Assembly (NCBI GenBank): GCA_963664225.1
Contig: OY760937.1
Coordinates: forward strand, 1,344,001 to 1,408,000
Source of the DNA: Verrucomicrobiia bacterium
Lineage (GTDB): Bacteria; Verrucomicrobiota; Verrucomicrobiia; Limisphaerales; UBA1319
Reading direction: 5' to 3'
DNA length: 64,000 bases
Under the pieces are notes generated by a model. The model worked only from the letters and a program-made list of their open reading frames with translations. It was not told the DNA's origin and did no database searches. Shown piece after piece: positions 4,387-53,693 of the stretch; the first letter of the stretch is position 1, and the number at the start of each line of letters is the position of its first letter. The position numbers were made by a program, and so were the translations under genes.

Positions 4387-4416
4387 GGGATTGTTTTTAC
4401 TTTGGTTGTCGGCAGG

Positions 4417-4599: not shown

Positions 4600-4609
4600 A
4601 GGGTTCGCA

Positions 4610-7578: not shown

Positions 7579-7588
7579 CGTTTTTCCT

Positions 7589-35103: not shown

Positions 35104-35152
35104 GCCGATGTGTTCCCAATGTGTGCGTTTTTCGCAAGACGGGGCAATTTAT

Positions 35153-35179
35153 TTGTAACCTTTCACGATTTCGTGGCTC
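35153..35179 (+). promoter_or_regulatory. ECF-type promoter TTGTAAC-N15-GGCTC for the YeeE pair
   Basis: ATTTGTAACCTTT is identical to the trxA copy, with the same spacing to GGCTC. Confidence 0.72.
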
Positions 35180-35191
35180 GATGAGTTCTAG

Positions 35192-35788
35192 GTGCAAAAC
35201 TTAAAATCTATGAACATAACTGACTGCGCTTCCGGCTCCTGCCGTTGCGGTGGAGGGCGTCAATCAATGAAGGGGCGTTGGAATCCCTATCTTGTCGGCA
35301 TTGGCATCGGCATCCTGAGTTGGCTGGCCTTTGCTGTTGTAGACGAACCGATTGGTATATCCACATCGCTCTCGGCTGTGTCCGGGCTTTGTGCCACCCC
35401 AATAATGGGCGGCGAAGCAGTGGCGAATAACGCTTACTGGGCCAAACTCCCATTTAAATGGAATGGCGGCATGTTGTTTCTTGTCGGCACGTTTCTCGGC
35501 AGTTTATTGAGCGTTCTGGCCAGCGGCACATTTCGGCTGGAGAAAGTCCCGGCGACGTGGTCGGAATACTTTGGCGGTTCGACTGGCAAGCGCATGTTCG
35601 CCGCCTTTCTCGGCGGTGTGATTATTATGTATGGAGCGCGCATGGCGGGTGGTTGCACCAGCGGACATGGCATCAGCGGTTCATTGCAATTGGCGCTGAG
35701 CAGTTGGGTGTTTTTTCTGACGATGTTCGTTTTCGGAATCGGAACTGCACTCATCCTCTTTCGAAAAACGTCGAACCAACCCCGATGA
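35192..35788 (+). CDS. YeeE/YedE-family sulfur-compound transporter subunit
   Basis: WNPY.VG and GARMAGGCTSGHGISG motifs. Confidence 0.88.
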   Translation: MQNLKSMNITDCASGSCRCGGGRQSMKGRWNPYLVGIGIGILSWLAFAVVDEPIGISTSLSAVSGLCATPIMGGEAVANNAYWAKLPFKWNGGMLFLVGTFLGSLLSVLASGTFRLEKVPATWSEYFGGSTGKRMFAAFLGGVIIMYGARMAGGCTSGHGISGSLQLALSSWVFFLTMFVFGIGTALILFRKTSNQPR

Positions 35789-35813
35789 TTTCAATTCTTA
35801 ACTTTTCAACACC

Positions 35814-36374
35814 ATGAATTTTCCTGTTTCTGCTGAAACGGCCCGTTGGCTGGCAATTCCGATGGGCATCCTTTTTGGGGTGCTTCTGCATCGCGGGGGC
35901 GTGTCGAACTATAACGTGATTGTTAATCAGTTCCGGTTCAAAGACTTCACCGTCCTTAAGGTTATGTTTACCGCCATCATTGTGGGTGGTATCGGCGTGC
36001 TCCTCCTGCATGGCGCTGGTCATGCCCTGTACCACATTAAGCCTGCGAATATGCTGGGCGTGGTCTTGGGTGCGGCCCTTTTTGGTGCGGGCATGGTGCT
36101 ATACGGATATTGTCCCGGCACGGGCATTGCCGCCATTGCCACGGGTAGCCTGCACGCCCTGGTCGGTTTCGTCGGCATGCTCCTGGGCGGAGCGCTCTAT
36201 GCGCTAAGTTTCTCCTGGGTTGCCAAACATATTCAGACCGTCGCGGCGCTGGGATCGGTTCGCCTTCCCGACATCACCGGCGTGCCCGACTGGGGCTGGT
36301 TCGGGATACTCATTGCGATCGCCAGCGTGATATTCTGGATTTTGGAAACAAAAGTTAAACCGGTCTCCGATTAG
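35814..36374 (+). CDS. YeeE/YedE-family sulfur-compound transporter subunit
   Basis: GILFGVLL, DFTVLKVM and LFGAGM.LYGYCPGT motifs. Confidence 0.88.
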   Translation: MNFPVSAETARWLAIPMGILFGVLLHRGGVSNYNVIVNQFRFKDFTVLKVMFTAIIVGGIGVLLLHGAGHALYHIKPANMLGVVLGAALFGAGMVLYGYCPGTGIAAIATGSLHALVGFVGMLLGGALYALSFSWVAKHIQTVAALGSVRLPDITGVPDWGWFGILIAIASVIFWILETKVKPVSD

Positions 36375-39917: not shown

Positions 39918-41870
39918 TTAATTTACGGCAATATCCACAAACGGCGGGATTGGGCAATCCAGCGTTTCGGCGATTGCTCGGAGCAATTCGGCTTCACTTT
40001 CCTGGATCAAACCATCAGCGCCGACGACATGCACGCAGGCTTCAATGAGATTCTTTTTGATCTGCGGCACGGCCAGTGCCAGGCGATCGAGAGCGGCATC
40101 GAGTTGTTCCAATCCACATGCTTCGAGGGGTAGGAGTTGGAGGCCATCCGCTTGTGCCCGCAGGTAGGGGGCGCCCGCCTGGAATGCCTTCTCAACAGTG
40201 TCAGCATTACTGCTGCTGAGGTTTCCCAGGGCGGAGAGCACGACGCTGCACGCCGGCAGGAGCGGTTTGAGCGTGTAGTATTGAATGGAGGCCGGATGGG
40301 TTTCACTCAACTGAGACGCGAGGTGACGGCGGACGATTTTCTGAAGTACGAATTCAAACAGTTCTACCCGGCCGTCGCTCTCAATGAGCCATTGCAGAGC
40401 CTGGTTGAACCGCTCAAACTCGTCAGGTCGAAGCAGGCGTAAGGCCGGCAGTGCAAGGTTTGCGAGGGGCAGACGCGCGCGCGAGGCGATGGACGAGATT
40501 TCAGGCCAGAGCGAGGCGGTTGTTTCGCCCACCTCCGGTGTGGCCCGCCTGGAAAGTTCGGTGAGTTGCTCGGCGCGTAGCGTGTCATCTGTGCTGAGAA
40601 GCATCGCGTAAAAAAGAGCTACGGCGTCGAGCGGTTCGCGTGCGGCGGATTGGATCTTTTCCGAGAATGAATTCCGCAATTCCACGGCATAGCGCAAGTG
40701 CAGAGGTGTTGGTTTGCCCAGGTTTGGCATCACAGTTGCCACTTGAATGGTGTTGGCAGAGAGGTCATTGGCTCCTGCCTGCGCACTCGGCATCCCGGGA
40801 ATCGGAGGGAACGGAAATTGGGACAATGGCGACTTTGACGGTCCTCGCGAAGATTCCGCTTCGCCCGCATTGAGGCTGATCCGCTTGAATTTCCCGTCCC
40901 AGGCCGGATCAATGGCGCGGATGCGCTCCTCGAGTGGCGGGTGGGTGGCCATCGAATTGAGGAACGATTTGCCCAAGGCGTTGCCGAAAAACATGTGGCT
41001 GGCTTCCCCGGCGTGAGCGGATTCGACCATGGATCCGGCGGCACCTATTTTTTGCAGCGCCCCTGAGAGCCCGTATGGATTGCGCGTGAACTGAACCGAG
41101 GAGGCATCAGCCAGAAATTCGCGTTGCCGACTTAGGGCAGCCTGAATGAGCCGGCCAAAGAATACGCCGATTGAGCCGATGACAATCAGGGCCAGCCCAA
41201 GGAGCATTAGAGGATTTTTGTCCTTGCCGCCCCGCGAATAGATCAATACCCGGCCGATCACCGCGAGGCAGAGGATGCCGAAGATGACTCCCATGAGCCG
41301 CAGATTCAGACGCATATCGCCATTGAGGATGTGACTGAACTCGTGGCCGATGACGCCCTGCAATTCATCCCGATTAAGCAAGGTCATGCAACCGCGTGTA
41401 ACGCCGATGGCGGCATCACCCGGCGCGTGGCCTGCCGCAAAGGCGTTGATGCCTTTTTCCTCGTCGAGGACATATATTTTGGGGACGGGCACACCGGAGG
41501 CAATGGCCATTTCCTCGATCACGTTCCGAAGTTTGCGCTCATCGGGATGGGTCGTGTTTGGATTGAGCAGGCGTCCGCCGAGCGATTCGGCGACAGCGCT
41601 GCCTCCCTCGGCCAAAGCGGCGATTTTATAGAGGCTGCCGACCGCTACAATGAAGAGAGTGCCTATCGTAACGTAAAGGAAAAGCATGGGATCCCACAAG
41701 ATGAGTTCCGGAAGAGTGCCGTCAGGCCTCTGTTTGGCGTGCGTGCCGTAAAAAATCAGCACGCTGGCGAAATAAATCGACACGATGATGCACGCGACGG
41801 CGATTATAAAATACGCCACCAGCACTCTTGTTTTCTTCCTGGCTTTGTCCTGATGTTCAAAAAAATCCAT
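39918..41870 (-). CDS. M48 (HtpX-like) metallopeptidase with extended C-terminus
   Basis: MDFFEHQ, INAFAAG, HEFSH, SRQREFLADA and THPP motifs. Confidence 0.9.
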   Translation of the reverse strand: MDFFEHQDKARKKTRVLVAYFIIAVACIIVSIYFASVLIFYGTHAKQRPDGTLPELILWDPMLFLYVTIGTLFIVAVGSLYKIAALAEGGSAVAESLGGRLLNPNTTHPDERKLRNVIEEMAIASGVPVPKIYVLDEEKGINAFAAGHAPGDAAIGVTRGCMTLLNRDELQGVIGHEFSHILNGDMRLNLRLMGVIFGILCLAVIGRVLIYSRGGKDKNPLMLLGLALIVIGSIGVFFGRLIQAALSRQREFLADASSVQFTRNPYGLSGALQKIGAAGSMVESAHAGEASHMFFGNALGKSFLNSMATHPPLEERIRAIDPAWDGKFKRISLNAGEAESSRGPSKSPLSQFPFPPIPGMPSAQAGANDLSANTIQVATVMPNLGKPTPLHLRYAVELRNSFSEKIQSAAREPLDAVALFYAMLLSTDDTLRAEQLTELSRRATPEVGETTASLWPEISSIASRARLPLANLALPALRLLRPDEFERFNQALQWLIESDGRVELFEFVLQKIVRRHLASQLSETHPASIQYYTLKPLLPACSVVLSALGNLSSSNADTVEKAFQAGAPYLRAQADGLQLLPLEACGLEQLDAALDRLALAVPQIKKNLIEACVHVVGADGLIQESEAELLRAIAETLDCPIPPFVDIAVN

Positions 41871-41958
41871 GTTTATAGATCATTGCGTGGTTGAAGCGTT
41901 CAAACTGTCCCAGGTCCATTGATTCAATGGATCCATGGAAATATGGCGCCAGCCTGAT

Positions 41959-42561
41959 TCATGAGAATGAAATATTCGGCGCTTCCCTTTGCTCCGGCTT
42001 CTCGATGGCAAACAACTCAGCGGCGGTGAAGTGGAACGTGTTGGCGATGACGCTGCTGGGAAAAACTTCCCGCTGTGTGTTGTAGGCCATGACCGAGTCG
42101 TTATACGCCTGCCGGGTGAAGGAGACTTTATTTTCTGTCGAGGTCAGTTCCTCCATAAGGTTCAGCATTGTCGTATTCGCTTTTAGGTCGGGATACGCCT
42201 CGGAGAGCGCGAAAAGTCGACCGAGCGCACCTGTGAGCGCGCCTTCGGCGCTGCCGAGTTGCTTCATGGAGGCAGGATCGCCGGGATTGGCGGCGGCACC
42301 CGCATTTGCGGAAGACGCGGCGTTGCGCGCAACGATGACGGCTTCGAGTGTGCCGCGTTCGTGTTTGAGGTAACCTTTGGCGGTTTCGACCAGGTTCGGA
42401 ATCAGGTCGTATCGCCGCTTGAGCTGCACATCTATCTGGGCGTAGGCGTTTTTGAAACGATTGCGCAATCCGACGAGTTTATTGTAGATGCTGACAACGA
42501 AGAGCACCGCAAAAAGTGCCAGCGCAGCCAACACAATGACGACGATCACGATTGGATTCAT
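41959..42561 (-). CDS. lemA: LemA family protein
   Basis: YN.LV, QIDVQLKRRYDLIPNLVE, EAYPDLKA and TENK...RQAYN motifs. Confidence 0.93.
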   Translation of the reverse strand: MNPIVIVVIVLAALALFAVLFVVSIYNKLVGLRNRFKNAYAQIDVQLKRRYDLIPNLVETAKGYLKHERGTLEAVIVARNAASSANAGAAANPGDPASMKQLGSAEGALTGALGRLFALSEAYPDLKANTTMLNLMEELTSTENKVSFTRQAYNDSVMAYNTQREVFPSSVIANTFHFTAAELFAIEKPEQREAPNISFS

Positions 42562-42632
42562 AATAATACGTATTCTTTGGTTGATTTCTCGGTTGTCATT
42601 CTGTTGTTCTCACCAGTGGTCATTTAAAGCAG

Positions 42633-42980
42633 TTAAAAATGTGGCCGGGCCGCGTCTTCAAGGAACACGATTCCAACTCCTCCAAGTGATTGGACTGGAG
42701 GACGCGGAGTTAACCGGTATGATCCGGAGGAAAGACAAAGAGTCAGGCAGCGTGCTTCAAACTGGGAATGCCACTGGTCGATCAGCGCAGGGCATTTGGC
42801 CACGCCTGCCCACTGGTTTCCCGCGATTAAGCCGAAGCAATGGGACATCATGCTGCCAAAGCGGGAGGCCGCGAGTGCAACGAGAAACGAGCTGTTGGCG
42901 CTGCCAAACAGCAATTTCGCGCATTTGGTGCTATCACCGAAAAACACATTCAGGGCCATGAGTTGCATGATGTGCTCCAT
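42633..42980 (-). CDS. Hypothetical protein
   Basis: 115-aa ORF between a TATGGGGT box and lemA; no recognised motif. Confidence 0.3.
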   Translation of the reverse strand: MEHIMQLMALNVFFGDSTKCAKLLFGSANSSFLVALAASRFGSMMSHCFGLIAGNQWAGVAKCPALIDQWHSQFEARCLTLCLSSGSYRLTPRPPVQSLGGVGIVFLEDAARPHF

Positions 42981-43089
42981 TCCTTTTCCTTCAGTGTTGG
43001 TGGTCGTTGTATATCACACTTCAGAAACCAATTCGACGACAATCTGCTCAGTTTCTCACATTAATGTTGCACCGAAATGTGTGGTTTAG

Positions 43090-43108
43090 CTATGGGGTGA
43101 AACCCCAC
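43090..43108. promoter_or_regulatory. TATGGGGT-box copy 5 (CTATGGGGTGAAACCCCAC)
   Basis: TGGGGT-GAA-ACCCCA palindrome at the head of the lemA block; TAATGT -10-like hexamer on the minus strand near 43058-43063. Confidence 0.68.
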
Positions 43109-43213
43109 TATGGATTGTAAAACACTTCCAGCCGAAGAGGTTCCAGGCGATTTTCCTTTTAAAGAACTTGCAGCTGTGACGCCGCCATCGAATCCTTGAA
43201 GCACATTTCCTGA

Positions 43214-43690
43214 GGGAGCTTCACCTCGCGCCTGAGCATGAACCTGCGCGAGGACAAGCATTGCTCCTATGGCGTGCGTTCTTCGATTGTGGATGCGATC
43301 GGTCAGCGGCCCTTCCTTGTTGTCGCTCCCGGTCAAAGGGACAAGACCAGGAAAGCCGTCCAAGAGTTAAGCCGGGAGTTAAAAGGGATGGTGGGCTCGC
43401 GACTGGCGTCTGCGGAGGAACTCGCCAAGGCGCAGAAGGACGAAACCGTTACGCTTGCGGACCGATAGGCAATCAGCTCTTCGGCCGCACATTCCATTGG
43501 CGAAATCGTTAATTGTGGCCTCCCGGCGGACTGCTTCATTAAACATTCAGACACTGTTCTTGAACTGAAGCTCGACGATCTGAGCCGCGCCGCTGGTGAA
43601 GTGGTCTATCCCGATCAGATGGTCTGGGGCGAACGTCATTGGCGCGGTTATCGAGACCGCCCACGTCGGAAACTCCTTGGCAGGGGAAGA
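43214..43690 (+). pseudogene. C-terminal fragment of an M16 (insulinase-like) peptidase
   Basis: GSFTSRLSMNLREDKHCSYG...RPF..AP...DKT, then a stop and frameshifts; no N-terminus. Confidence 0.65.
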
Positions 43691-43741
43691 TGGGATTGGG
43701 CTCGGTCTGACAGGTGCGCTGAGGATTCGTGCCATCGGCAT

Positions 43742-44470
43742 TCACGACAGTGTCAGATTGGATGGGGTTGTTGCCGATTTTAAAAGACCGTCTTCCATCT
43801 CATAGGTCCGGTCGAAGACATCCAACGAGCGCTGGTCGTGGGTGACCACGAGGACAGCCGCGCCACGTTCGTGAGCGACCTTGCCGAATAACTCCATCAC
43901 CTGGCGTCCGCGATGGCTGTCGAGGGCGGCGGTGGGTTCGTCGGCGAGAATGAGGTTTGGCTGATTGGCCAGCGCCCGGGCCACGGCCACGCGCTGCTGC
44001 TGGCCGCCGGAAAGCGCGTCGGGAAGGTTGTTTGCCCGGTCTGCCACGCCAAGGTAATCAAGCAACTCCATCGCGCGTTCCCGGGCCGCGTGTGCAGAGA
44101 CGTCGTTGATCTCCATTGCAATCGCAACATTTTCCAAGGCATTTAGGAACGGAATGAGATTCGCCTTCTGGAAAACGAAACCAAGATGTTTGCGGCGGTA
44201 AGCGCGCACGTCCACCAGGGCGCGGCTGCCATCCATCACCGGTTCTCCACCGATGATGATGCGTCCGGAGGTGGGTGGGTTGATGAGGCCGATGGCAGTG
44301 AGAAAAGTGGATTTTCCCGCGCCGCTTGGACCGAGCAGGGCCACGACTTCACCATGCGCCAGGATCACGGAAACGTCTTTCATAGCCACGACCTCGGTGT
44401 TGCCCGAGCCGTAGATTTTCGTCAGGGCGACGGCTTCCACCGCATTGGTGTTATTGGAGGTTGTGGTCAT
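43742..44470 (-). CDS. ABC transporter ATP-binding protein (MacB/LolD-like)
   Basis: GPSGAGKST, LSGGQQQR, ADEPT and VTHD motifs. Confidence 0.93.
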   Translation of the reverse strand: MTTTSNNTNAVEAVALTKIYGSGNTEVVAMKDVSVILAHGEVVALLGPSGAGKSTFLTAIGLINPPTSGRIIIGGEPVMDGSRALVDVRAYRRKHLGFVFQKANLIPFLNALENVAIAMEINDVSAHAARERAMELLDYLGVADRANNLPDALSGGQQQRVAVARALANQPNLILADEPTAALDSHRGRQVMELFGKVAHERGAAVLVVTHDQRSLDVFDRTYEMEDGLLKSATTPSNLTLS

Positions 44471-45678
44471 GATAATATCTTATTGGGTTCGACGCGCATG
44501 GCCTTGATGATGCCTACCAAACTTGCCAGCACGGAAATTCCCAACACGATGCCTGCCAGCGAGAGCAAGTCCTGTGGCTCGATGATCACGAATCGGGGAA
44601 ATCTCGGGAAGGCATATGTGCCCAGCCAATACGCCAGCCCATAACCGAGCGCTCCGATGAGCAACGCCTGCTGGAGAATCAGGCCGACAATCACACCGTT
44701 GCGCGCTCCCATTAACTTGAGCATGGCGATGTCGTGAATCTTGTCCATCGTGAGGGTGTAGATAATGAGCGCCATGATGATGGTCGAGATGATGATGAGC
44801 AGAGCGCGGAAGAGGCCGAGCTGGCGCCTGGCCTTGTCCACCATGCCGGAAAGCAGCAAGTCCACCTGCTGCTGTTTGGAATAGACTGTAACGTCCGGCC
44901 ACTTCGAGATGGTTCCGGAGACCTTCGCCACATCCGCCCCAGGCTGAAGGGTCAACATGATGGCGCTGACTTGAGGTGGCGCAAGGGCAGGAATGCCGCT
45001 GACGGGACCCATGGCGCGTTCGAGCAATAGGGGTTGCACACGGCCAATATCCTGGGCCTCGGCCCGCGTGCGACGCGATTGGCGTTCCAATCGGCTGACT
45101 TCTCCGGGCAGATCGAATTGAATGGCTTCCGCGTCGCTTGTCGTAAAAAAGCACAAGCCGTCGCCTCCGGTGCCAACCATGCCGCTGGTAATGCCAACGA
45201 CCTGGTAAATGTCCTTTCCGAGCTTTAATTTCTCACCGAGTCCCAGCTTCAAAGAGCGGTCTGCAATCATTTCAAAATGCGCATTCCTCAAGGGACGTCC
45301 CGAAATCAGTTTCACCCAATCGCCCCTGTCTTCAGGCCAGGAAAGTCCCTGCACCACCATGCGCAGCGTTTGGCCGCGATGCTCACGTTGAATTGTGTGT
45401 GAGACGAAGCGTCGCGCTCCAGCCACACCTGGCACGGCGCGCACCCGATCTTCCAGATTGGCAGGCATGCGCGAGATTTCCGCGAATGGCCCACGTGTGC
45501 TCCCTTGAACGACCCAAAGGTCGGCGCCGATGTTGTCCACGAGCAGTGTGGCTTCACGAATCAGTCCCCTGTAAATGCCGCCCATGCCCATCACGATCAT
45601 GAGGAGCAGGCCGATGCCGACGGTGGTTAATGCAAACCGACCGAAGTTGTGGCGAATGTCTTTGATTGCAAGGTTCAT
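44467..45678 (-). CDS. ABC transporter permease (MacB/FtsX-like)
   Basis: One N-terminal TM, large periplasmic domain, IAMLKLMGA and three C-terminal TMs. Confidence 0.9.
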   Translation of the reverse strand: MNLAIKDIRHNFGRFALTTVGIGLLLMIVMGMGGIYRGLIREATLLVDNIGADLWVVQGSTRGPFAEISRMPANLEDRVRAVPGVAGARRFVSHTIQREHRGQTLRMVVQGLSWPEDRGDWVKLISGRPLRNAHFEMIADRSLKLGLGEKLKLGKDIYQVVGITSGMVGTGGDGLCFFTTSDAEAIQFDLPGEVSRLERQSRRTRAEAQDIGRVQPLLLERAMGPVSGIPALAPPQVSAIMLTLQPGADVAKVSGTISKWPDVTVYSKQQQVDLLLSGMVDKARRQLGLFRALLIIISTIIMALIIYTLTMDKIHDIAMLKLMGARNGVIVGLILQQALLIGALGYGLAYWLGTYAFPRFPRFVIIEPQDLLSLAGIVLGISVLASLVGIIKAMRVEPNKILS

Positions 45679-46847
45679 TGCAGGGCGACCTTTTGGCCGG
45701 GTTTGAGGGACGTTTGCCTGGAATCAAGCGGAGCAACGACTTGTTCTCCGGCCGACAAACCCCGGGTAATTTCAACTGTCTCACTTCCCCGCAAGCCGAG
45801 CGACACATCACGCCATGCGGCATGTCCTTTTTCCGAGACGAACACACCCGGTTTACCCGCTCGCCATTGAATAAATTGCTGCGGCACAACCAGGGCATCC
45901 GTTTTGCGCCCGGTCTCGATGAATACCTCGGCACGCTGGCCCACGGTCCAGTTGGCCGGCAGATTATTGACGGCAACATCCACCAGGAATTCGCGCGTCT
46001 CCCGGTCCGTTTCGCGACCGAGCCGCTTAACCGTCCCGGGATGATTTTTCTCAGATTCAGAACGGAATACCACGCGCGCCGTCTGGCCGGTGGCCAGGCC
46101 AGCGGACGCGGTTTCGTCCACCCAGGCGGACACCCAGATTTCATTGGTTGAGATTATTTGAAGGATCGAACTGCCGGGGACGACCACGCCACCCGCATCC
46201 CGGTCGCGTCGTGTGACCAGACCGTCATACGGGCTGAGAATCCGGGTGAAACTCAACCGCTCCTGTTGATAGGCCAGGTTTTTCTCCGCTGTGATGATTT
46301 GCCGTCGTGCCTCCACCGTGGCGGCGCGGGCGCGTTGAAGGTCGGCTTCCGCCACGCGCAGCAGCTCGATGGCTTTGTCGAATTCGGATTGCGAACTGAC
46401 TTTTGTGCTGACGAGTTCGGACACGCGTTTGTGGTCCTGTTGTGCCTGCACCTCCACCGCCTGGGCGCGGGCTTCATCCGCCAGAACGCGTTCGGCGGTG
46501 GACTTCGCCGCGGCAACGGTTGCCTCAGCGACTTCCACCTGACCCTTGAGTTCGCCATCATCGAGGCGGGCCAGCAACTGCCCGGCTTTGACAGAATCGT
46601 TTTGGTCCACAAGCACCTCCGCCAGCCGCTCCTGGATTTGCGGGCTGATGGTGGTCTTGATCCGGGCTTCGAGAGTGCCCGTGCCCATGACCTCGGCGGT
46701 GATGGGACCATTTTTGACTTCGTAACCGAGCACGCGCGTTGGAGCGAATTTTACGCGGTAAAGCAGGACGAGGACGATGGCCACCAGCGCAATCCATTTC
46801 GCTGACTTGCGGAGAACTGATAAAAAGCGGGTTCGTGATTCGTTCAT
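45675..46847 (-). CDS. Efflux periplasmic adaptor (MacA/HlyD-like)
   Basis: GTGTLEA, VK.GQLLARLD, coiled-coil hairpin and ILSPYDG motifs. Confidence 0.9.
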   Translation of the reverse strand: MNESRTRFLSVLRKSAKWIALVAIVLVLLYRVKFAPTRVLGYEVKNGPITAEVMGTGTLEARIKTTISPQIQERLAEVLVDQNDSVKAGQLLARLDDGELKGQVEVAEATVAAAKSTAERVLADEARAQAVEVQAQQDHKRVSELVSTKVSSQSEFDKAIELLRVAEADLQRARAATVEARRQIITAEKNLAYQQERLSFTRILSPYDGLVTRRDRDAGGVVVPGSSILQIISTNEIWVSAWVDETASAGLATGQTARVVFRSESEKNHPGTVKRLGRETDRETREFLVDVAVNNLPANWTVGQRAEVFIETGRKTDALVVPQQFIQWRAGKPGVFVSEKGHAAWRDVSLGLRGSETVEITRGLSAGEQVVAPLDSRQTSLKPGQKVALQ

Positions 46848-46885
46848 ATATGTAAGGGGCGGTGGGATATTTCAGCGACTGGGGG

Positions 46886-47986
46886 CTACATGATCATGTT
46901 GAATAGATAGCCCACCAAAAGGATTCCCAGCGCCACAACGCCGAAGAAGGTCGCGATAAGCCGGGGCTTGAGCACCTTGCGGAGGATAATGGCCTCGGGC
47001 AGGGAGAGTGCTATGACGGACATCATGAACGCCAGGACTGTGCCCAGAGCGGCGCCTTTGCCGAGCAACGCCTGCACAATCGGGATGATGCCCGCCGCGT
47101 TGGAATACATCGGGACCCCAATGACCACTGCCAGTGGCACGGACCACCACGCGCCTTTACCCATGATGGAGGCCATGAAATTCTCTGGCACGTAACCGTG
47201 AATGCCCGCGCCGACGCCGATGCCAATCAGCACATAGAGCCAAACGCGTCCAACAATGTCCTTCACCGCGTCCAGGCCGGAACGGATGCGGGCTGACCAG
47301 TCGAGCGATTCTTCAGCGGCTCCATTGCCGAGTGGAGTCTGGTAAACCCAATCCTCGACGTGCTTCTCCATGTGCAAACGGCCAATAACCCAACCGGAAA
47401 CGATGGCGATGATGAGGCCGGTGCTGAGGTAAAGGGCTGCCACTTTCCAGCCAAACAATCCGAACAATAGAACCAGGGCGACTTCGTTGACCATCGGTGC
47501 GGAGACCAGAAAGGAGAACGTTACTCCCAAGGGGACCCCAGTTGTGACGAAGCCGATGAACAAAGGGACGGCCGAGCAGGAACAGAAAGGGGTGACGATG
47601 CCCAGTAGCGCCGCGAGCACATTGCCGACAGACTCGCGTTTGCCGAAGAGAATCCGGCGTGTCCGCTCCGGTGTGAAGAAAGAGCGGACGATGCCCACGC
47701 CGAATACGACCAGGGTGAGCAGCATGAGGACCTTGGGGGATTCATAGATAAAGAACTCCACGGATGAACCCAGGTGCGAACCTTTCGTCAGCCCGAATAG
47801 CGCATAGGTGAACCAGGACGCAAGCGACGCCAGACTTCGGTAGAGGAACCACCAAACCAGAAGCACGACAAAGCCCAACACGATATAGCGAAGGAGCGTC
47901 TGCTTGGGAACTGCCGGGGCGGGGCGGTCTGCCGACAGGTTCGTCGGCATGGGACTGGAGATTTGTTTGCGGCTCATCTCAGACAT
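46886..47986 (-). CDS. arsP: ArsP / DUF318 permease
   Basis: TPFCSCSAVPLF, GVTFSFL.SAPMVNE, GVPMYSNAAG and ALSLPE motifs. Confidence 0.85.
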   Translation of the reverse strand: MSEMSRKQISSPMPTNLSADRPAPAVPKQTLLRYIVLGFVVLLVWWFLYRSLASLASWFTYALFGLTKGSHLGSSVEFFIYESPKVLMLLTLVVFGVGIVRSFFTPERTRRILFGKRESVGNVLAALLGIVTPFCSCSAVPLFIGFVTTGVPLGVTFSFLVSAPMVNEVALVLLFGLFGWKVAALYLSTGLIIAIVSGWVIGRLHMEKHVEDWVYQTPLGNGAAEESLDWSARIRSGLDAVKDIVGRVWLYVLIGIGVGAGIHGYVPENFMASIMGKGAWWSVPLAVVIGVPMYSNAAGIIPIVQALLGKGAALGTVLAFMMSVIALSLPEAIILRKVLKPRLIATFFGVVALGILLVGYLFNMIM

Positions 47987-48020
47987 AATTACGGTCGTGA
48001 TTTGGAATTCACAGGTTGTC

Positions 48021-48719
48021 TCATGCCGCCGAGTAGATCAGCCAGATGCCGCCCAGAAGGACCAGAACGCCGCAGATGGATTTGATCACCGTGACGCCTT
48101 TGGATTGCTCGTTCCAATTGAGGAAGCGTTGGACGACTTCGGTGAAGGTTCCCGCGAGAATGATGACGGAACAATGCCCAATCCCGTAAGCGAGCAAAAG
48201 TGAGGCACCGTAAAGTGGCGCCGACCTGGCGAGTTTAAAAGTGACACCGAGCATCGGTGCCATGAAGGCGAAGGTGCAGGGCCCGAGCGCAATCCCGAAG
48301 ACGAGGCCGAGAATGAATGCGGCAAACAGGCCCTTGCGTTTCAAATTCACCTGGCCTGGGCCGGACCACGGCATCGGAATGACACCGAGCAGATTCAAGC
48401 CTACAACAAAGAAGATTGCCGCCACGAAGTAATTCCCCCAGTGCCCCACATCGCCCATCATCCGGCCCGCCATCGCCGTAATGGCTCCGATGGCCGCAAT
48501 CGTCATTAGAATCCCGACCGCAAACAGAGTCGCAATGCCCGAGGCGCGCGCTGTCGAGACGCGTCCTTGACCGCTGATGAACCCCACGATCAATGGAATG
48601 CTCGCCAGATGGCAGGGGCTGAGAATGATGCTGAGAATGCCCCAGACCACCGATGCGCCCAGCGCGAGCATGGGAGCGCCCTCGACGGCGTGACTGAGAC
48701 TTGTGAAGAGTTGCTCCAT
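48021..48719 (-). CDS. ccdA: CcdA / DsbD-beta transmembrane electron transporter
   Basis: Six TMs with LSPCHL and LGPCTF cysteines. Confidence 0.85.
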   Translation of the reverse strand: MEQLFTSLSHAVEGAPMLALGASVVWGILSIILSPCHLASIPLIVGFISGQGRVSTARASGIATLFAVGILMTIAAIGAITAMAGRMMGDVGHWGNYFVAAIFFVVGLNLLGVIPMPWSGPGQVNLKRKGLFAAFILGLVFGIALGPCTFAFMAPMLGVTFKLARSAPLYGASLLLAYGIGHCSVIILAGTFTEVVQRFLNWNEQSKGVTVIKSICGVLVLLGGIWLIYSAA

Positions 48720-48721
48720 GG

Positions 48722-48946
48722 CTATTGTGGGCGATTGGTGAGCGATTCGCTGGCAGCACTAAGAGCTTTCGCATTGGTGGCTGCGACTGTCAGCACAGAG
48801 TTGGTCGGCAGGGGCTCCAAGTTGAATAAGAGTGGACAACATGAGCCGCCGGCACATGCCGCGCGCTGTTCTTGCCGGGCCGTCAAGAGGGCTGCTGCCG
48901 CGATGAAAACAGTGCCGACGAGAAGTGTGCGGCGGTCGGGTTTCAT
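48722..48946 (-). CDS. Small exported peptide with CAGGSCC motif
   Basis: 74 aa with hydrophobic N-terminus; fills the 48719-48948 gap with 1-2 nt spacing on both sides. Confidence 0.55.
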   Translation of the reverse strand: MKPDRRTLLVGTVFIAAAALLTARQEQRAACAGGSCCPLLFNLEPLPTNSVLTVAATNAKALSAASESLTNRPQ

Positions 48947-48947
48947 A

Positions 48948-50234
48948 TTATTTGCACTCGCCAAGTTTGCAGGCCTTTGCAATTTGGTCGGGTGTGAGCT
49001 TCATTTTGTCTGCGAGCGCTTGGGCGATGGTGATTTGTCGGCCAGTCATTGCCGGGCGAGCCTCAAGCCACTTGTTAAGATTGTCCTCGTTAACGAAGAA
49101 TCCCTGTTTGAAGCAACCGGCTGAGACCCACTTGCCTTCCGGGGCTTTTTTCTGCCCAAACCATGCGATGGCGGATGCCGGTTCCAGCGATGCTACCTGG
49201 CCATCCAATGTTTTCACGCGAATCAGCTCGCCGGTCTGGCTATCCTTCGCCTCAACTTCGATGTCCTGCTTCAGTCGTGCGGCCACGCCAATTGCGCAGT
49301 GCGTGCAGCAGCCGTATCCGTGAGTGGTTCCAAATTTTACGCCACACGCGTCTTCGGGATATACAGCGCGGTCGCAAAAGGCGCAACGCGTGGTCAGTTC
49401 CTTGGAGCGAAACACTTCCCAAGCCAGGAGATTGCCTGGATTAGTCTGCTGTTCCTTTGTGGCCGCAGCTTTGTCAGCGAACGCTTTGATCGTGGGGCGA
49501 CCTTTAGCGTCCATGCCGTAGAGATAGAATGCGGTGGTGGCGGCTACGAGATTGCCACTAGCCCAATCGGTCACGCTCACTTTGGCCTCTTCAGCTTTAG
49601 GGTCCGCGCCCACGATGCTGGAGAAGTAGATGAAATAGCAATGCGGTGAGCACAGGACGCGCTGCTCGGCCTGTCCTTTCACGACCGTCCTTGTCTTCGG
49701 ATCCACATCGCCGTCACACATGTAACAGACTTGATCGCGCGGGCGAGTGTCGGGTTTCACGGCTTCCTCGCGCACGTTTCCGGCCGATGCATTGCCGTTG
49801 CTCAAGTCGATGCCCAGTTCCTTCCACTTGCCGAGGATATCTTCTTTGCCAAAGAAACCCGTGTGGCGGAACAGTTCCCTGCCTTCGGCATCGAAGAAGA
49901 TCTGCGTGGGAATCATTTCAATGCCGTATTGTTTGCCCGCATCCGGATTTTTCCATACGTCAAGGAACTCGATGTTCACTTTCCCGGCGTACTCTTTTTT
50001 CAACCCCTCCAAAATGGGAGCCATCATTTTGCACGGAATGCATTTGTCCGCGCCCAGGTCAATGAGCTTGGGCAGCTTCGCGGTAACGCCTGGTGTTGCG
50101 TTTGTTTCAGCAACAGCCACAGGGAGAGGGGCCTTGCTGGCTTCGGCAGGCGATTTGGCGTTCTTCAGAGTCACCGCTCCAACGACCGCGAGCGCCAGCG
50201 CCAGAACAATGACGATTTTGACGGGAGTATTCAT
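48948..50234 (-). CDS. Exported thioredoxin + NosL-like + MerB-like fusion protein
   Basis: Signal/anchor; DLGADKCIPCK...IPTQ; CYMC...CSPHC...VTDWASG...AFYLYG...AFAD..AA; CAFC...YGCCTHC...IEVEAKDSQTGELIRV...LEP..AIAW...AGCFKQGFF....L..W. Confidence 0.72.
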   Translation of the reverse strand: MNTPVKIVIVLALALAVVGAVTLKNAKSPAEASKAPLPVAVAETNATPGVTAKLPKLIDLGADKCIPCKMMAPILEGLKKEYAGKVNIEFLDVWKNPDAGKQYGIEMIPTQIFFDAEGRELFRHTGFFGKEDILGKWKELGIDLSNGNASAGNVREEAVKPDTRPRDQVCYMCDGDVDPKTRTVVKGQAEQRVLCSPHCYFIYFSSIVGADPKAEEAKVSVTDWASGNLVAATTAFYLYGMDAKGRPTIKAFADKAAATKEQQTNPGNLLAWEVFRSKELTTRCAFCDRAVYPEDACGVKFGTTHGYGCCTHCAIGVAARLKQDIEVEAKDSQTGELIRVKTLDGQVASLEPASAIAWFGQKKAPEGKWVSAGCFKQGFFVNEDNLNKWLEARPAMTGRQITIAQALADKMKLTPDQIAKACKLGECK

Positions 50235-50265
50235 AATGAGTGTTCGTTTGAGTTGATCAAATGGT

Positions 50266-51042
50266 TCATGGTTTGATCTTCTGGAATAACGCCGGGAGCT
50301 TCGTGCGATACATCTCCGCCACCTGCGATTCCATCTCGGCCAGGGGTTTCACAGGAACGAGGTCCATCACTTGAGCGGGTGTCAGACCGGATTCGAGCAA
50401 TGTACGCGTGGCGCCACAAACCATGCGCTTCATCGCGGGGACAATTTCAGCGTCGCTGAGCCCAAAACCCGTCGCCACTTCGCGCAGGGCCTGAAGCTGG
50501 AACCACAGATAGGTTGGCCCCATGGCTGTGAGCAACGCGTAGCCTTCGAGCTTTTGTTCCGCCACTTCCGGGCACTCGCCCAGCGGTGTGAGCAAAGCGG
50601 TGACTTCCGCCTTGTCTGCGGCCGTCAAGGATGGCGCGAAGGCCACCGGATTAAAACCGAAGTTGACCAGGGATGGCGCATTGGGAATGACGCGCGCCAG
50701 CCGAGTGAATCCACCGAGCAGTTCTGAAAGTCTGGCAAACGTGAACTTGGGCGCGAGCGATACCACCAGCGCGCCGGGTTTGATGCCGGACTTGATGCCG
50801 CCGGCCACCTCAGCCATCGCCGGTGGATGAACCGCCAGAAAAACGATGTCCTGGGAGGGGGCCGCGTGGCTGTCTGTGGCCGTGTTGATGGATGGGAAGT
50901 TCGCTTTGAGATTCGCGAGAGTGTCCGCGTTGCAGTCGCTCACCACGATATGGGCCGGGAGGGTGTTCGCCCTTCTCCAGCCTTCCAGAAGAATACTTGT
51001 GACACGCCCGCCGCCAATGAAACCAATGCTTTTATTGCTCAT
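50266..51042 (-). CDS. Pyrroline-5-carboxylate-reductase-like NAD(P)-binding oxidoreductase
   Basis: IGFIGGG, DIVFLAVHP, VVSLA, RVIPN and GPTY motifs. Confidence 0.75.
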   Translation of the reverse strand: MSNKSIGFIGGGRVTSILLEGWRRANTLPAHIVVSDCNADTLANLKANFPSINTATDSHAAPSQDIVFLAVHPPAMAEVAGGIKSGIKPGALVVSLAPKFTFARLSELLGGFTRLARVIPNAPSLVNFGFNPVAFAPSLTAADKAEVTALLTPLGECPEVAEQKLEGYALLTAMGPTYLWFQLQALREVATGFGLSDAEIVPAMKRMVCGATRTLLESGLTPAQVMDLVPVKPLAEMESQVAEMYRTKLPALFQKIKP

Positions 51043-51085
51043 GAAGGTCCTTTCAATTAAACGTTTCACGAATGATTTTGGAGGC

Positions 51086-51328
51086 TTACGCCGCCGCCTG
51101 TTGGAGAATCGCCTTGATCTCAGGGACGCTTGGCACCTTGCCAACGACCTTGATCGTGCCGTTAACCGCGAGGGCAGGGGTCATCATCACGCCCAGGGCC
51201 ATGATCTGCTTGAGATCGGTGACCTTGTTGATTTCAGCGGTGATGCCGAGTTCCTTGACGGCTTGCTCGGTGAATTGCGCCAGGGTTTTGCATTTGGCGC
51301 AGCCGGTTCCAATGACGAGTAATTGCAT
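51086..51328 (-). CDS. Small redox-active disulfide protein (MTH895-like)
   Basis: GTGCAKC and GVMMTPAL..G.VPS motifs. Confidence 0.88.
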   Translation of the reverse strand: MQLLVIGTGCAKCKTLAQFTEQAVKELGITAEINKVTDLKQIMALGVMMTPALAVNGTIKVVGKVPSVPEIKAILQQAAA

Positions 51329-51348
51329 AATAGGATTTTATTTTGAGA

Positions 51349-51777
51349 TTAGAATAATGCTTCGTAGAGCAGTCCGCTCAGCGTCGACATCACAATGACG
51401 AGCGACACATGGACCACCGTTTTCTTCGTGCCCAGGCGCCAGATACCTGCAAACAAAGGTAATACGGTGCAGGAGCAGACCGCCAGAATGGTGCCCGACA
51501 CCGACGCCACGCCGTAGGCCATGGGCTTGCTGGCCTTTGGGCCGAGATATTTCATGACTGAGGCCTGACTGACAAACACTCCAATGGCGCCGGCAATGAA
51601 AAAGGCGGGGACAAGGCACAAAATGACATGCTCGCGCGCATACCATTTCACTAATTCAAAGGCTTCGGTTATGGCGTTATCGAAACGTGGCACACCGACT
51701 GACAGATAAAAACACGCCAAAAACAAACCGACGATCAGGGACAGCGGCTTCCACTCGTCTTTCCAGTTCGTAGCCAT
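51349..51777 (-). pseudogene. DUF318/ArsP-type permease with large in-frame internal deletion
   Basis: N-terminus EHVILCLVPAFFIAG...AVCSCTVLPLFAGIWR is joined directly to the extreme C-terminus LGTKKT...; only 142 aa. Confidence 0.7.
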
Positions 51778-51817
51778 TTAGCGGAGTCGATAAATGAAAA
51801 TTCAAAAAAAAGAGAAA

Positions 51818-52147
51818 TCAGGCCAGCAGGGCAGCATCCCGATCGATGGAGGCTTTCCGCACCTCCGTAACGCAATGGAAGAATTTCATCACACACGGAG
51901 TTTTTAACTGGTAGAAAACCTGCGCACCGCGCTTGTCGTCTTCCACGATGCCAGCCGACTTGAGCACCGACAAATGCCGGGAGACGGTGGGCATTTCCAC
52001 TCCAATCATGGCCGTTAATTCACAGACGCATCGTTCCCCCCGAGAAAGTTCCTCAACAATAAAGAGGCGCGTCGGATGGGCGAGGGCCTTATGAACTTTT
52101 GCCTGGGCCTGATACCGTGCTTTGTCAATCGAAGTCATGCCATTCAT
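51818..52147 (-). CDS. arsR: ArsR/SmtB metalloregulator
   Basis: KALAHPTRL, ERCVCEL and VSRHLSVLK.AG motifs; extra PC..FF.C cysteines. Confidence 0.88.
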   Translation of the reverse strand: MNGMTSIDKARYQAQAKVHKALAHPTRLFIVEELSRGERCVCELTAMIGVEMPTVSRHLSVLKSAGIVEDDKRGAQVFYQLKTPCVMKFFHCVTEVRKASIDRDAALLA

Positions 52148-52154
52148 TCGTGAG

Positions 52155-52183
52155 CAATTTAGCATATCTGCTAAGTGTGTCAA
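52155..52183 (-). promoter_or_regulatory. Sigma70 promoter (TTGACA-N16-TAAATT) overlapped by a TTAGCA-N4-TGCTAA operator
   Basis: Palindrome at 52159-52174 lies in the spacer and overlaps the -10, just upstream of the arsR start. Confidence 0.65.
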
Positions 52184-52389
52184 ACTAAAAACGACAAATT
52201 GTTGAATATAGCGTCAATCTCGTCAGCCACGCCTTGAGTTTGGATTGGACTTTACTCCGAGCCACTTGAAAATCGATTTCATGATTTGACAGTGCTCACT
52301 CAATCCTGGCTCCGATCTACGCACCTATCCTTTGAATAGTGATCCAAATCGGGCGATCACGTCGAAAAGTTACTTCTCGATGCCACTTT

Positions 52390-52530
52390 GAACAATTGGT
52401 GGAAGGTGCCGTGGAGATTCTCCAGCTATTCGTTGATGCTTTTATCGGTGCGTTCCATCGCCGCCAGGCGGTTCGCGTTTCGCTGGAGAGGGATTCGGCT
52501 CACGCCCGAAAGAGCGAGACGGAGAAGCTC
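52390..52530 (-). pseudogene. Remnant of an F-type ATP synthase gamma-subunit C-terminus
   Basis: Manual translation VSLFRA*AESLSSE / NANRLAAMERTDKSINE*LENLHGTFHQL, with two stops and a frameshift. Confidence 0.6.
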
Positions 52531-52810
52531 AGTGAGCTTCCGAATTCACGCAAGTCTGGAAAGAGTGGAAACTCCCGGGGCCTTTTGCCTCAAATCAGGA
52601 TTCGACAATTGCATAATTTTCTCTGGGGCGGAACACTATAAGCCCTTTGGAAATCGTGTTGTCGTATCACCAAGACATGGCCCTGCAAAGAGTGGTATCG
52701 CTACCGACTGGGGCTGCTCCCCTTTCGAGGGATTGGCTTGCACATTTGCGCCTTGGTCCTATTTCCAGGAGCGTCCTGCGCTAGAACATAGGGCATTTCA
52801 GTGTCATTCA

Positions 52811-52834
52811 ACGGACACCAAAACGGACACCAAA
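52811..52834 (+). repeat. Tandem 12-bp repeat ACGGACACCAAA x2 (putative integrase arm sites)
   Basis: Perfect tandem copy about 95 bp inside the att core. Confidence 0.7.
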
Positions 52835-52928
52835 AGAGTTAAAACGGGTAGGGTAGGGTAGTGAGCGATTAGGCTTGAATAGCCCGTAAAATATGGCATT
52901 TTGACTCCGTAATTGTAGCGTTTTTGGA

Positions 52929-52950
52929 TCGAGTCCGACCACCGGCACCA
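52929..52950 (+). mobile_element. att site: duplicated tRNA 3' end, probably tRNA-Leu
   Basis: TCGAGTCCGACCACCGGCACCA is T-loop, T-stem, acceptor strand and CCA; the matching 5' tRNA half is absent upstream. Confidence 0.8.
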
Positions 52951-52964
52951 ACACCCAATTTTAT

Positions 52965-53693
52965 ATGAAATATATTCTAACCGTCGCTTTTGGCCTGCTG
53001 TTGGCAGCGGGATCCTTTGCCGCTGAAACACCAGTGGGAGAGGAAGGTTTTGTGAGCCTGTTCGATGGGAAAACCCTTGATGGCTGGAAAGTTGGGGTGA
53101 ACGCCAGCGTTTTCCAGGTCCGCGACGGCATGATCGTTATGGAGTGTCCAGCGACAATCCATAGCCCAGCACACTTGTTCTACGTTGGAAAAGTGAGCGA
53201 TCACAGCTTCAAAAACTTCGATCTTCGCATTGATGTAATGACCTTCCCTTTCGCAAATTCCGGAATTTATTTTCATACGGAATATCAGGAGTCCGAGTGG
53301 CCCAAGCGCGGACTGGAATGCCAGGTGAACAACAGTCACGCTGACTGGCGGCGGACCGGCAGCCTGTATTCCATCAAGAATATATCCTGGGGGCCGGAAA
53401 CGCCCTCTGCGGACAACAAGGAGATGGTTACGATTTTGCCAAAAGCGCCCATTAAGGATAATGTCTGGTACACTCAGGAGATTATTTACCAGAACGGCGC
53501 AGTCACTGTTAAACTCAATGGCGTGACCATGATCGAATACACGATTGCCGACAGCGATGTCCAACATAAGCTTCAAACTGGGATGACTTGGCTGCCGAGA
53601 GGGACATTCGCCCTTCAGGGACATCCTCCGATGCCGGACCATGCCAGCAAAGCGTGCTTCAAAAACATCCGCATCAAGATACTGCCCGACTGA
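52965..53693 (+). CDS. DUF1080 (3-keto-disaccharide hydrolase) family protein
   Basis: Signal peptide; LFDGKTLDGW, NSGIYF, ECQV, TGSLY, ALQGH and FKNIRIK motifs. Confidence 0.88.
   Translation: MKYILTVAFGLLLAAGSFAAETPVGEEGFVSLFDGKTLDGWKVGVNASVFQVRDGMIVMECPATIHSPAHLFYVGKVSDHSFKNFDLRIDVMTFPFANSGIYFHTEYQESEWPKRGLECQVNNSHADWRRTGSLYSIKNISWGPETPSADNKEMVTILPKAPIKDNVWYTQEIIYQNGAVTVKLNGVTMIEYTIADSDVQHKLQTGMTWLPRGTFALQGHPPMPDHASKACFKNIRIKILPD

Follow-up and report, generated by a model that had tools for sequence, protein, structure and literature searches.

A stretch of 64,000 nucleotides from a Verrucomicrobiia bacterium (GenBank assembly GCA_963664225.1, contig OY760937.1, positions 1,344,001 to 1,408,000; hereafter the window, meaning this whole stretch) carries an operon-like run of eleven genes that is headed by an arsR regulator gene and encodes a predicted membrane-anchored fusion of thioredoxin-, NosL- and MerB-like domains. 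The run represents a real, widely conserved and arsenic-linked envelope system, whose function can be proposed from sequences and structure models. With a probability of about one half, it is an ArsR-repressed envelope module induced by As(III) or organoarsenicals, in which a thioredoxin fed by a CcdA-like membrane protein would keep cysteine sites reduced that capture exported arsenicals.

In the list of open reading frames, the eleven genes lie co-oriented, tightly spaced and head to tail on the minus strand, from position 52183 to 43742. With corrected starts, the spacing between them ranges from a 4-nt overlap up to 43 nt. No enrichment of terminator-like sites was seen within the run (9 vs. 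10.9 expected from shuffles), and an Rfam scan of positions 42000-53500 returned zero families at gathering score. Protein families were assigned with Pfam and NCBIfam, and scores are given in bits against the family cut-offs. All eleven genes that an earlier, sequence-only reading of the window had named were found in this single run. The sole RNA sequencing run holds 0.09 of the words of the stretch, and only DNA-type contig runs hold most of them.

Conservation, regulation and the link to arsenic

A scan of one genome per species yielded at least 599 stretches, at least 584 of which encode a relative of the fusion protein. Synteny was counted in the best 80 of these at least 584 stretches, for which the eleven window proteins and fifteen representatives of neighbouring proteins were compared with all frames. 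Most of the 80 loci belong to Verrucomicrobiota and Planctomycetota (Phycisphaerae, Pirellulales), and the remaining hosts include Hydrogenedentota, Nitrospiraceae and Kiritimatiellae, among others. A gene for a Trx_3 redoxin is co-oriented with the fusion gene in 71 of them and lies upstream in all 54 loci that offer at least 4.5 kb of upstream flank. The gene for the CcdA-like membrane protein is co-oriented in 70 of the 80, and in 68 of the 73 with at least 1.5 kb of downstream flank; the remaining five of these 73 encode an ArsG-family DsbD-like protein in its place, which brings the DsbD superfamily to 73 of 73. Where the flank is sufficient, arsR is found in 48 of 54 loci and an ArsP_1 permease in 43 of 54. 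The core of the system consists of the genes for the Trx_3 redoxin, the fusion protein and the DsbD-like protein, which are usually preceded by arsR and a permease gene. In contrast to the sequence-only reading, which had included an ABC pump and a ProC-like oxidoreductase in the system, both are optional accessories: the ccdA-like gene is followed by the trio of adaptor, permease and ATPase genes in 9 of the 54 loci whose downstream flank reaches at least 5.5 kb, these 9 being spread over more than one phylum, and the ProC-like gene occurs in 21 of 80. Failure of the genes to occur together elsewhere had been set beforehand as a refutation of the proposed system; the cluster recurs across genomes, so the proposal has withstood this check.

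The claimed association with arsenic is likewise borne out, as at least one canonical ars gene (arsC, acr3, arsM or arsD) is co-oriented in 45 of the 80 loci, with acr3 in 32, arsC in 29, arsM in 29 and arsD in 4. Further accessories encode a Tat-signal FMN reductase (35 loci), a DGC-domain protein (33), an ArsF-family protein (25), a second thioredoxin protein (17), and GcvH-like (9), OsmC-like (8) and Lpd proteins (6). For Lpd, the lipoamide dehydrogenase model gives a higher score (500.1) than that of MerA (364, under the cut-off of 454.45), and the three last-named families represent a lipoyl-dependent reducing or peroxidase set within the arsenic cluster. In verrucomicrobial loci such as L002, L004, L005, L010, L013 and L016, the gap between the Trx_3 and fusion genes holds an Lpd gene, one to three genes for GcvH-like lipoyl proteins and one OsmC-like gene. 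Candidate hgcAB or mer genes in this gap were rejected: what it holds across loci are ProC-like, DGC-domain, GcvH-like, Lpd, OsmC-like and Fe-S (PF04060) proteins. The families that recur as neighbours in the 80 loci include no mer, cop, cus or czc family and no nos genes, the latter being also missing from the operon itself.

The first gene of the run (51818..52147) encodes an ArsR/SmtB metalloregulator (HTH_5 59; NF033788 93.1 vs. 55). It carries the C-V-C motif noted in the sequence-only reading, as C52-V-C54, together with C97 and C104 (numbering of the 121-aa frame), and cysteine is kept at these four positions in 57, 54, 57 and 57 of 57 aligned ArsR sequences, respectively. The start of arsR was moved from TTG 52183 to ATG 52147 because the former falls on the −35 hexamer of the sole strong promoter-like site of the minus strand; judging from this overlap, translation probably begins at ATG 52147. 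The promoter-like site (52156..52183, minus strand) consists of −35 TTGACA, a 16-nt spacer and −10 TAAATT. Between the two hexamers lies a perfect 16-nt palindrome of the form TTAGC-N6-GCTAA (52159-52174), which overlaps the promoter and is a candidate ArsR operator. This looser pattern was found in 15 of the 80 related loci, and in 14 of these 15 it is placed at the arsR frame's 5' end or flank; its ten fixed bases would be expected by chance about 0.01 times per locus.

The central fusion protein

The gene at 48948..50234 encodes a protein of 428 aa with Pfam matches to Thioredoxin (48.8), NosL (PF05573, 24.2 vs. a cut-off of 24) and MerB (PF03243, 68.2 vs. 27). An AlphaFold2 model built from 26 orthologues (mean pLDDT 86.9) predicts a transmembrane helix (residues 3-25), a disordered linker (26-51) whose length varies between orthologues, three folded domains and a C-terminal cysteine pair. 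When this model was compared with 48,161 chains by VIA-align, residues 51-143 matched the thioredoxin fold with Z around 13, including Bacteroides TrxP (3hxs, Z 13.0, 40% identity). Residues 164-279 matched the copper chaperone NosL (7og7, Z 11.4, rmsd 2.7, 109 of 134 residues aligned), and residues 286-419 matched MerB2 (5c17, Z 12.5, rmsd 3.0, 122 residues aligned) and MerB (3f2g, Z 11.0); MerB2 5c17 is also the top Foldseek match (E 1e-8). The fusion of these three domain types described from the sequence alone is upheld by Pfam, AlphaFold2 and VIA-align, and the model also has the membrane helix. Because of its N-terminal helix, the protein is predicted to be anchored outside the cytoplasm, and no lipobox cysteine was seen at its N-terminus. 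Together, the helix, the variable linker and the similarity to TrxP would fit an extracytoplasmic reductant. The gene is single-copy in the genome.

Fourteen cysteines are invariant in 26 fusion sequences that are 51-78% identical to that of the window. They comprise the C-x-x-C of the thioredoxin domain, a C-x2-C-x21-C-x3-C set with which the NosL-like domain begins, another set of this spacing within the MerB-like domain with one adjacent cysteine, C374, and the C-terminal C-x4-C. The four-cysteine spacing is what we take to be the TRASH motif. Passages of PMC8261052 describe a TRASH-type motif as a general metal-binding motif and state that a common ancestry has been proposed for TRASH domains, NosL and MerB. 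In thioredoxin-less distant relatives (22-37% identical), the second four-cysteine set is likewise invariant. An alignment made with HMMER (E 2.3e-9) places C310, C313 and C374 of the fusion on C102, S105 and C165 of MerB2 5c17, which presumably correspond to Cys96, Asp99 and Cys159 of MerB. These three MerB residues are called essential and catalytic in PMC8261052, in the passages that deal with them. The fusion keeps both cysteine positions, while the Asp99 position is taken by an invariant cysteine in 26 of 26 sequences. Since the catalytic aspartate is replaced in this way, a thiolate metal(loid)-binding site is a better match than a MerB-type lyase, and the probable role of the fusion, as far as alignments tell, is to bind arsenic-type compounds and not to cleave them. 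With its complete zinc-ribbon-type cysteine set and the active-site cysteines of MerB, the protein looks intermediate between TRASH/NosL modules and MerB.

The possibility of a lyase, which the sequence-only reading had entertained, deserves closer consideration. The MerB-like domain could be a periplasmic, oxygen-independent lyase for methyl- or aryl-arsenicals or for organic antimony, mercury, tin or lead compounds, in which case thioredoxin and the CcdA-like protein would recycle the enzyme and the pump would remove the product. The Pfam score, the fold similarity to MerB2 and MerB and the two conserved active-site cysteines speak for this proposal, and the co-oriented arsM in 29 of 80 loci, along with an ArsP_1 exporter in most, makes organoarsenicals plausible substrates. 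Yet the aspartate described as essential is a cysteine throughout, its counterpart in the closest solved relative, MerB2, is a serine, and the scores with more specific models fall far under the cut-offs, i.e. 25.6 vs. 193 and 29.2 vs. 200 for the MerB equivalog and exception models and 23.4 vs. 140 for SaoL (NF040728). Moreover, breaking an As-C bond by protonolysis is in chemical terms much more difficult than breaking an Hg-C bond, and mer genes are missing from the recurrent neighbours. We consider such a lyase unlikely, and its most far-reaching version, in which the MerB fold with cysteine for aspartate is supplied with electrons and forms a periplasmic, O2-independent enzyme that breaks C-As or C-Sb bonds, i.e. 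an anaerobic counterpart of the dioxygenase ArsI, has a slimmer chance still. If this version were true, hundreds of PVC-group and other sediment bacteria would harbor an anaerobic ArsI counterpart.

The residue that follows C374 is a phenylalanine, which leaves no Cys-Cys or Cys-Sec pair of the kind that marks SaoL about 50 residues from the C-terminus, and no in-frame TGA was seen at the cysteine positions of the fusion among the 80 loci. Two apparent split forms with selenocysteine (L019 and L037) were dismissed, as each consists of an extra stand-alone thioredoxin gene and a complete fusion gene lacking an in-frame TGA. The stand-alone genes (L019:2093-2545 and L037:8001-8420) encode membrane-anchored thioredoxins directly before the fusion, so that the module is duplicated.

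With the NosL/MerB-like part as query, 1.84 billion representatives yielded only 100 clusters at E ≤ 0.001, of which 28 reached E ≤ 1e-30. A word-index search with the fusion gave 1975 proteins at E ≤ 0.001 among 7999 scored candidates, and a search of the ESM Atlas with residues 150-428 returned zero usable matches. The family is abundant yet compact, and a functional name was not found among the matches; named relatives are called just "thioredoxin 1" or "thioredoxin fold domain-containing protein".

Partner proteins and genomic surroundings

The protein of 232 aa encoded at 48021..48719 has no Pfam match at E ≤ 0.01 and only weak NCBIfam matches to ArsG (NF040495, 41.2 vs. 200), TsoB and DsbD. 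Its family shows an unusually high mean column identity of 81%; the motifs P35-C36 and P147-C148, one in each half of the protein, and an H-C motif (C183) are invariant in 35 sequences. Compared with a true ArsG-family member, hhalign gave a probability of 93.7% over 203 columns. The structure model consists of transmembrane-length helices, and its top Foldseek match is CcdA (5vkv, E 9.9e-3, 223 columns, TM-score 0.45), the next having an E-value of 0.14. Based on its P-C motifs, helices, Foldseek match and weak NCBIfam scores, the protein belongs to the DsbD/CcdA superfamily and is not an ArsG proper. Because a CcdA-superfamily protein with retained P-C motifs adjoins the fusion, the natural reading is that the fused thioredoxin is fed with electrons across the membrane. 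The electron supply proposed earlier for this pair is thus supported by adjacency, predicted topology and invariant P-C motifs.

On the cytoplasmic side, the Trx_3 redoxin (51086..51328, 80 aa) belongs to the MTH895/ArsE family (TIGR00412, 103.7 vs. 62), and its C-x-x-C (C10, C13) is invariant in 35 sequences. The arsenite chaperone ArsD weakly resembles this family (TIGR00412, E 3.4e-4). A complex prediction for the CcdA-like protein and Trx_3, with both supplied as alignments, scored 0.00 in a run without controls and counts neither way.

Two genes encode proteins of the ArsP_1 (DUF318) type. The first (51349..51777) is a remnant of 142 aa that matches only positions 9-81 of the 294 in the Pfam profile. 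Of a permease that measures around 435 aa, it keeps about 116 residues from the N-terminus, joined in frame to about 26 from the C-terminus. The permease was matched in a genome of the same genus (G001) and in twelve other relatives; nine of these thirteen matches are near full length, including that of the same genus, whereas the genome of the window matches residues 1-116 only. Contigs from 4 runs of 2 studies bridge the deletion junction near 51430 gap-free, although one of these runs may be the source sample of the assembly, which makes the read support not fully independent. The deleted DUF318 permease of the sequence-only reading is hence real and represents an in-frame internal deletion. 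The second gene (46886..47986) encodes a full-length ArsP_1 permease of another type (PF03773, 254.2, profile positions 2-293 of 294), with SaoE as its best NCBIfam match (137.5 vs. 325). It is the only other ArsP_1 gene of the genome. The second type occurs in just 4 of 80 loci, among them L045, where it likewise follows the ccdA-like gene and no upstream permease is present. The simplest reading of these alignments is that one permease type has been replaced by the other.

The last three genes encode a periplasmic adaptor, i.e. a membrane-fusion protein (45675..46847; TIGR01730 183.8 vs. 94.9, HlyD_3 66.6), an ABC permease with FtsX and MacB periplasmic core domains (44467..45678; MacB_PCD 50.2, FtsX 45.1) and a DevA/LolD/MacB-like ABC ATPase (43742..44470; ABC_tran 115.5). 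These scores assign them to a tripartite pump of the MacAB type, with the specific MacA and MacB equivalog models under their cut-offs. Pumps of the MacB type take their substrates from the periplasm. A TolC-family gene (33685-35103), which had been pointed out in the sequence-only reading, is confirmed by an OEP score of 222.9; it lies 8.6 kb from the pump and is a putative partner.

Between Trx_3 and the fusion, a gene that probably starts at ATG 51042 (50266..51042) encodes a ProC-like NAD(P)-binding oxidoreductase (F420_oxidored 57.9; TIGR00112 113.9, under the cut-off of 196.75). Because a canonical proC (283.5) is found elsewhere in the genome, the gene of the operon is an extra paralog. 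Nothing shows that this accessory feeds electrons into the system, as had been supposed for NAD(P)H. A small frame (48722..48946) begins with ATG 48946, 1 nt past the stop codon of the fusion, and ends 2 nt before the ATG of the ccdA-like gene, a tight packing such as real genes with translational coupling typically show. Listed at 86 aa and reduced to 74 aa by the corrected start, its product has an N-terminal hydrophobic helix followed by a cysteine-rich stretch and zero family matches in Pfam and NCBIfam. Homologues were found by phmmer (E ≤ 1e-5) in 8 of 80 loci, all with fusions at least 74% identical to that of the window, and their cysteines are incompletely conserved.

Searches of the 64-kb window by tblastn with representatives from related loci found no arsC, acr3, arsD or ArsF, and the ArsM representative matched only a generic methyltransferase (12180-12497, 30% identity). 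Genome-wide family searches placed acr3, arsC and arsM outside the window. The earlier statement that arsC, acr3 and arsM are missing from the window is hence correct, while merA and arsI, which it also listed, were not searched for. A conventional operon is located 2.7 Mb away (locus L096, G000:C1:4093000-4105000, frames 3922-8323, minus strand) with the order arsR, arsC of the thioredoxin type, a gene for a C-GCAxxG-C-C protein, a split-Soret cytochrome c-like gene, arsM (392 aa) and acr3. In view of this second operon, the organism has ordinary arsenic detoxification with a methylation step, to which the system of the window is added, and the distant ArsM could be a source of methylated As(III). 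A gene for a VapC-type toxin lies just upstream of the conventional operon. A second acr3-like match in the same genome (G000:C1:1495240-1495954) falls into two frames (profile positions 79-294 and 295-326), stays under the cut-off and may be a broken copy.

Since relatives carry genes for a Tat-signal FMN reductase, a second ArsR and ArsC after the pump, these were sought by tblastn in the 1.2-kb spacer below the ATPase gene, where no remnants of them were found. Part of this gene-poor spacer (43182-43627, 446 nt) has an 85%-identical second copy at another site of the genome, on the opposite strand (G000:C1:96214-96659), and its short frames have no Pfam match. Directly below the spacer follow a LemA-family gene and a gene for a 650-aa M48 peptidase with a C-terminal TerB domain of the tellurite-resistance type (39918-42561), and then a gene for a 900-aa P-type cation ATPase (37202-39904). 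The TolC-family gene is succeeded by two half-size genes for "sulphur transport" proteins of the YeeE/YedE type (the three together spanning 33685-36374) and preceded by a methyltransferase gene (32682-33437) and one for a fusion of NifU-N, Mrp/NUBPL ATPase and dinitrogenase-cofactor domains (30153-31790). A further thioredoxin domain (24256-24522, minus strand) resides in a frame of 231 aa and is 31% identical to that of the fusion.

Function and relation to known systems

In the proposed pathway, trivalent arsenic, antimony or an organoarsenical would bind the four-cysteine ArsR and relieve repression at the palindromic operator over the promoter. An ArsP_1 permease would then export the trivalent species from the cytoplasm; in the window this task would fall to the second copy because the first is deleted. 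Reducing equivalents may be passed over the membrane by the CcdA-like protein and so reach the anchored fusion at its thioredoxin domain. In the oxidising periplasm, this domain would in turn keep the twelve other invariant cysteines, which lie in the NosL-like domain, the MerB-like domain and the C-terminal tail, in their reduced form. The metalloid could be captured by the thiolates of the C-x2-C-x21-C-x3-C set of each domain and by the C310/C313/C374 trio at the MerB position, and As(III) prefers three-thiolate sites such as the latter. The fusion would thus act as a sink or chaperone instead of a MerB-type lyase. Here, and in a minority of the other genomes, the MacB-type tripartite pump together with a TolC-family channel may finally expel the bound or conjugated species.

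Several points weigh against this pathway. As a serious caveat, the four-cysteine sets could simply be structural zinc sites and C313 a zinc ligand, with thioredoxin and the CcdA-like protein serving maturation only. The spatial clustering of the fusion cysteines is deduced from alignments only, and two of the thioredoxin-less relatives (P0134 and P0136) have no cysteine at the position of C374. The benefit of a periplasmic sink is not obvious either, as uncharged As(OH)3 leaves the periplasm without a chaperone, and the pump is missing from most loci. Furthermore, C-V-C regulators of the ArsR/SmtB family also sense other thiophilic metals, which means that the inducer is not fixed by the motif. 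Finally, the canonical ars genes come after a second arsR in many loci, and their adjacency may therefore join separate operons.

As unlikely as a lyase appears the alternative that the system is a thiol redox enzyme, i.e. a periplasmic reductase of pentavalent arsenicals or a repair reductase by which periplasmic dithiol proteins, such as the machinery that matures cytochrome c, would be freed from arsenical adducts. A thiol cascade would be in keeping with the fused thioredoxin and with the cysteine pair at the C-terminus, and the Lpd, GcvH-like and OsmC-like proteins of some loci could provide a lipoyl-dependent reducing route. For genes of CcdA, of thioredoxin and of redox-active disulfide protein 2 in ars operons, of which 8 instances in 7 organisms were listed, Castillo and Saier (2010, PMC2963123) left the role open and, in the passages devoted to these genes, proposed a "putative arsenate reductase system"; the same passages call a transmembrane electron flow "less likely", as ArsC is cytoplasmic. 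In addition, Pfam and NCBIfam revealed neither an arsenate-binding P-loop nor a rhodanese motif in the fusion, and As(III) made in the periplasm would have no obvious detoxifying value.

It is rather improbable that the system is unrelated to arsenic and just often parked beside ars genes, serving as a chaperone that handles Cu(I), Zn, Cd or Hg in the periplasm, with an efflux permease and under the control of an ArsR/SmtB-type metal sensor. The fold match of the NosL-like domain to a copper chaperone is compatible with such a role, as are the matches of the two ArsP_1 proteins to the SO_0444 Cu/Zn efflux family (101.9 and 31.1) and the general metal-binding capacity ascribed to the TRASH-type motif. 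Against it stand the co-oriented canonical ars genes in 45 and the ArsF-family genes in 25 of 80 loci, as well as the lack of cop, cus, czc, mer or nos genes among the recurrent neighbours. Very improbable, lastly, is the ArsEFG paradigm. In it, the DsbD-like protein would not carry electrons but would work as an efflux permease, its substrates being aromatic arsenicals that redoxins modify prior to export, for instance by nitro reduction. NCBIfam does name ArsE, an ArsF "nitroreductase subunit" and an ArsG "efflux permease", the window protein is homologous to an ArsG-family member, and ArsG-family proteins replace it in five loci, but its ArsG score is far under the cut-off, its structure model matches the electron transporter CcdA best, the adjoining fused periplasmic thioredoxin looks like a partner of CcdA, and the window holds no ArsF.

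Arsenic resistance is usually described as cytoplasmic chemistry combined with efflux across the inner membrane. If capture by a reduced periplasmic fusion is the function of the system, a dedicated, reductant-fed periplasmic step would be added to this scheme in at least 584 species-level genomes. Their hosts are abundant bacteria of soil, freshwater and sediment, the source of the window being a verrucomicrobium of the soil/freshwater type. The CcdA, thioredoxin and Trx_3 genes long noted in ars operons would gain a testable role, and the naming of ArsG-type proteins as "efflux permeases" would be affected. Should methylated or aromatic arsenicals be bound or transformed, the system would also bear on arsenic speciation in anoxic soils and paddies, for which we know of no demethylating enzyme.

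The description of the system as new, put forward in the sequence-only reading, holds in part. No account of a thioredoxin/NosL-like/MerB-like fusion was found in the open-access full-text literature searched, whereas CcdA and thioredoxin genes of ars operons have been known since 2010 from the compilation cited above and NCBIfam has names for ArsE, ArsF and ArsG. With this ArsEFG or CcdA-thioredoxin set (TIGR00412, NF040494, NF040495), in a comparison by family names, the operon shares the Trx_3 redoxin and a DsbD-superfamily protein in an ArsR/ars context, and related loci contain ArsF- and ArsG-family genes. It differs by the missing ArsF, by a DsbD-like protein under the ArsG cut-off and by the 428-aa fusion as central partner.

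For the individual domains, the closest relatives are MerB/MerB2 and NosL. The MerB-like domain shares with the former the fold, the Pfam match and both active-site cysteine positions; in contrast, it has a cysteine for the catalytic aspartate and four extra cysteines as a TRASH-type set, is predicted to be periplasmic, is joined to other domains and was seen in no mer context. NosL resembles residues 164-279 in fold, and both proteins would handle metals outside the cytoplasm, this location being predicted for the fusion. Unlike NosL, the fusion has a Pfam score right at the threshold, a four-cysteine motif that the title of the NosL entry does not imply, no nearby nos genes and no lipobox.

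The selenocysteine-assisted organometallic (SAO) locus, which Clostridioides difficile shares with other anaerobes (bioRxiv 10.1101/2022.07.06.499078), had been named as an echo of the operon. The common set consists of a MerB-like protein, the DUF318-type SaoE, a small thioredoxin-like protein and an overload of cysteines, but the likeness is shallow. According to the portions of the preprint that describe them, SaoL is cytosolic with a Cys-Sec pair near its C-terminus, and the locus encodes an uptake ABC transporter; in a term search of the preprint text, ArsR, CcdA, NosL and DUF318 each had 0 occurrences. The scores of the window proteins with the SaoL and SaoE models, given above, place them outside these families. 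Systems of CcdA or DsbD with periplasmic thioredoxins, as in cytochrome c maturation or of the ScsB type, likewise combine a six-helix protein with two P-C motifs and a membrane-anchored thioredoxin. In the operon, however, the client would be a metal-binding-type module that is fused to the thioredoxin itself and placed under a metalloregulator, instead of a cytochrome or a peroxiredoxin.

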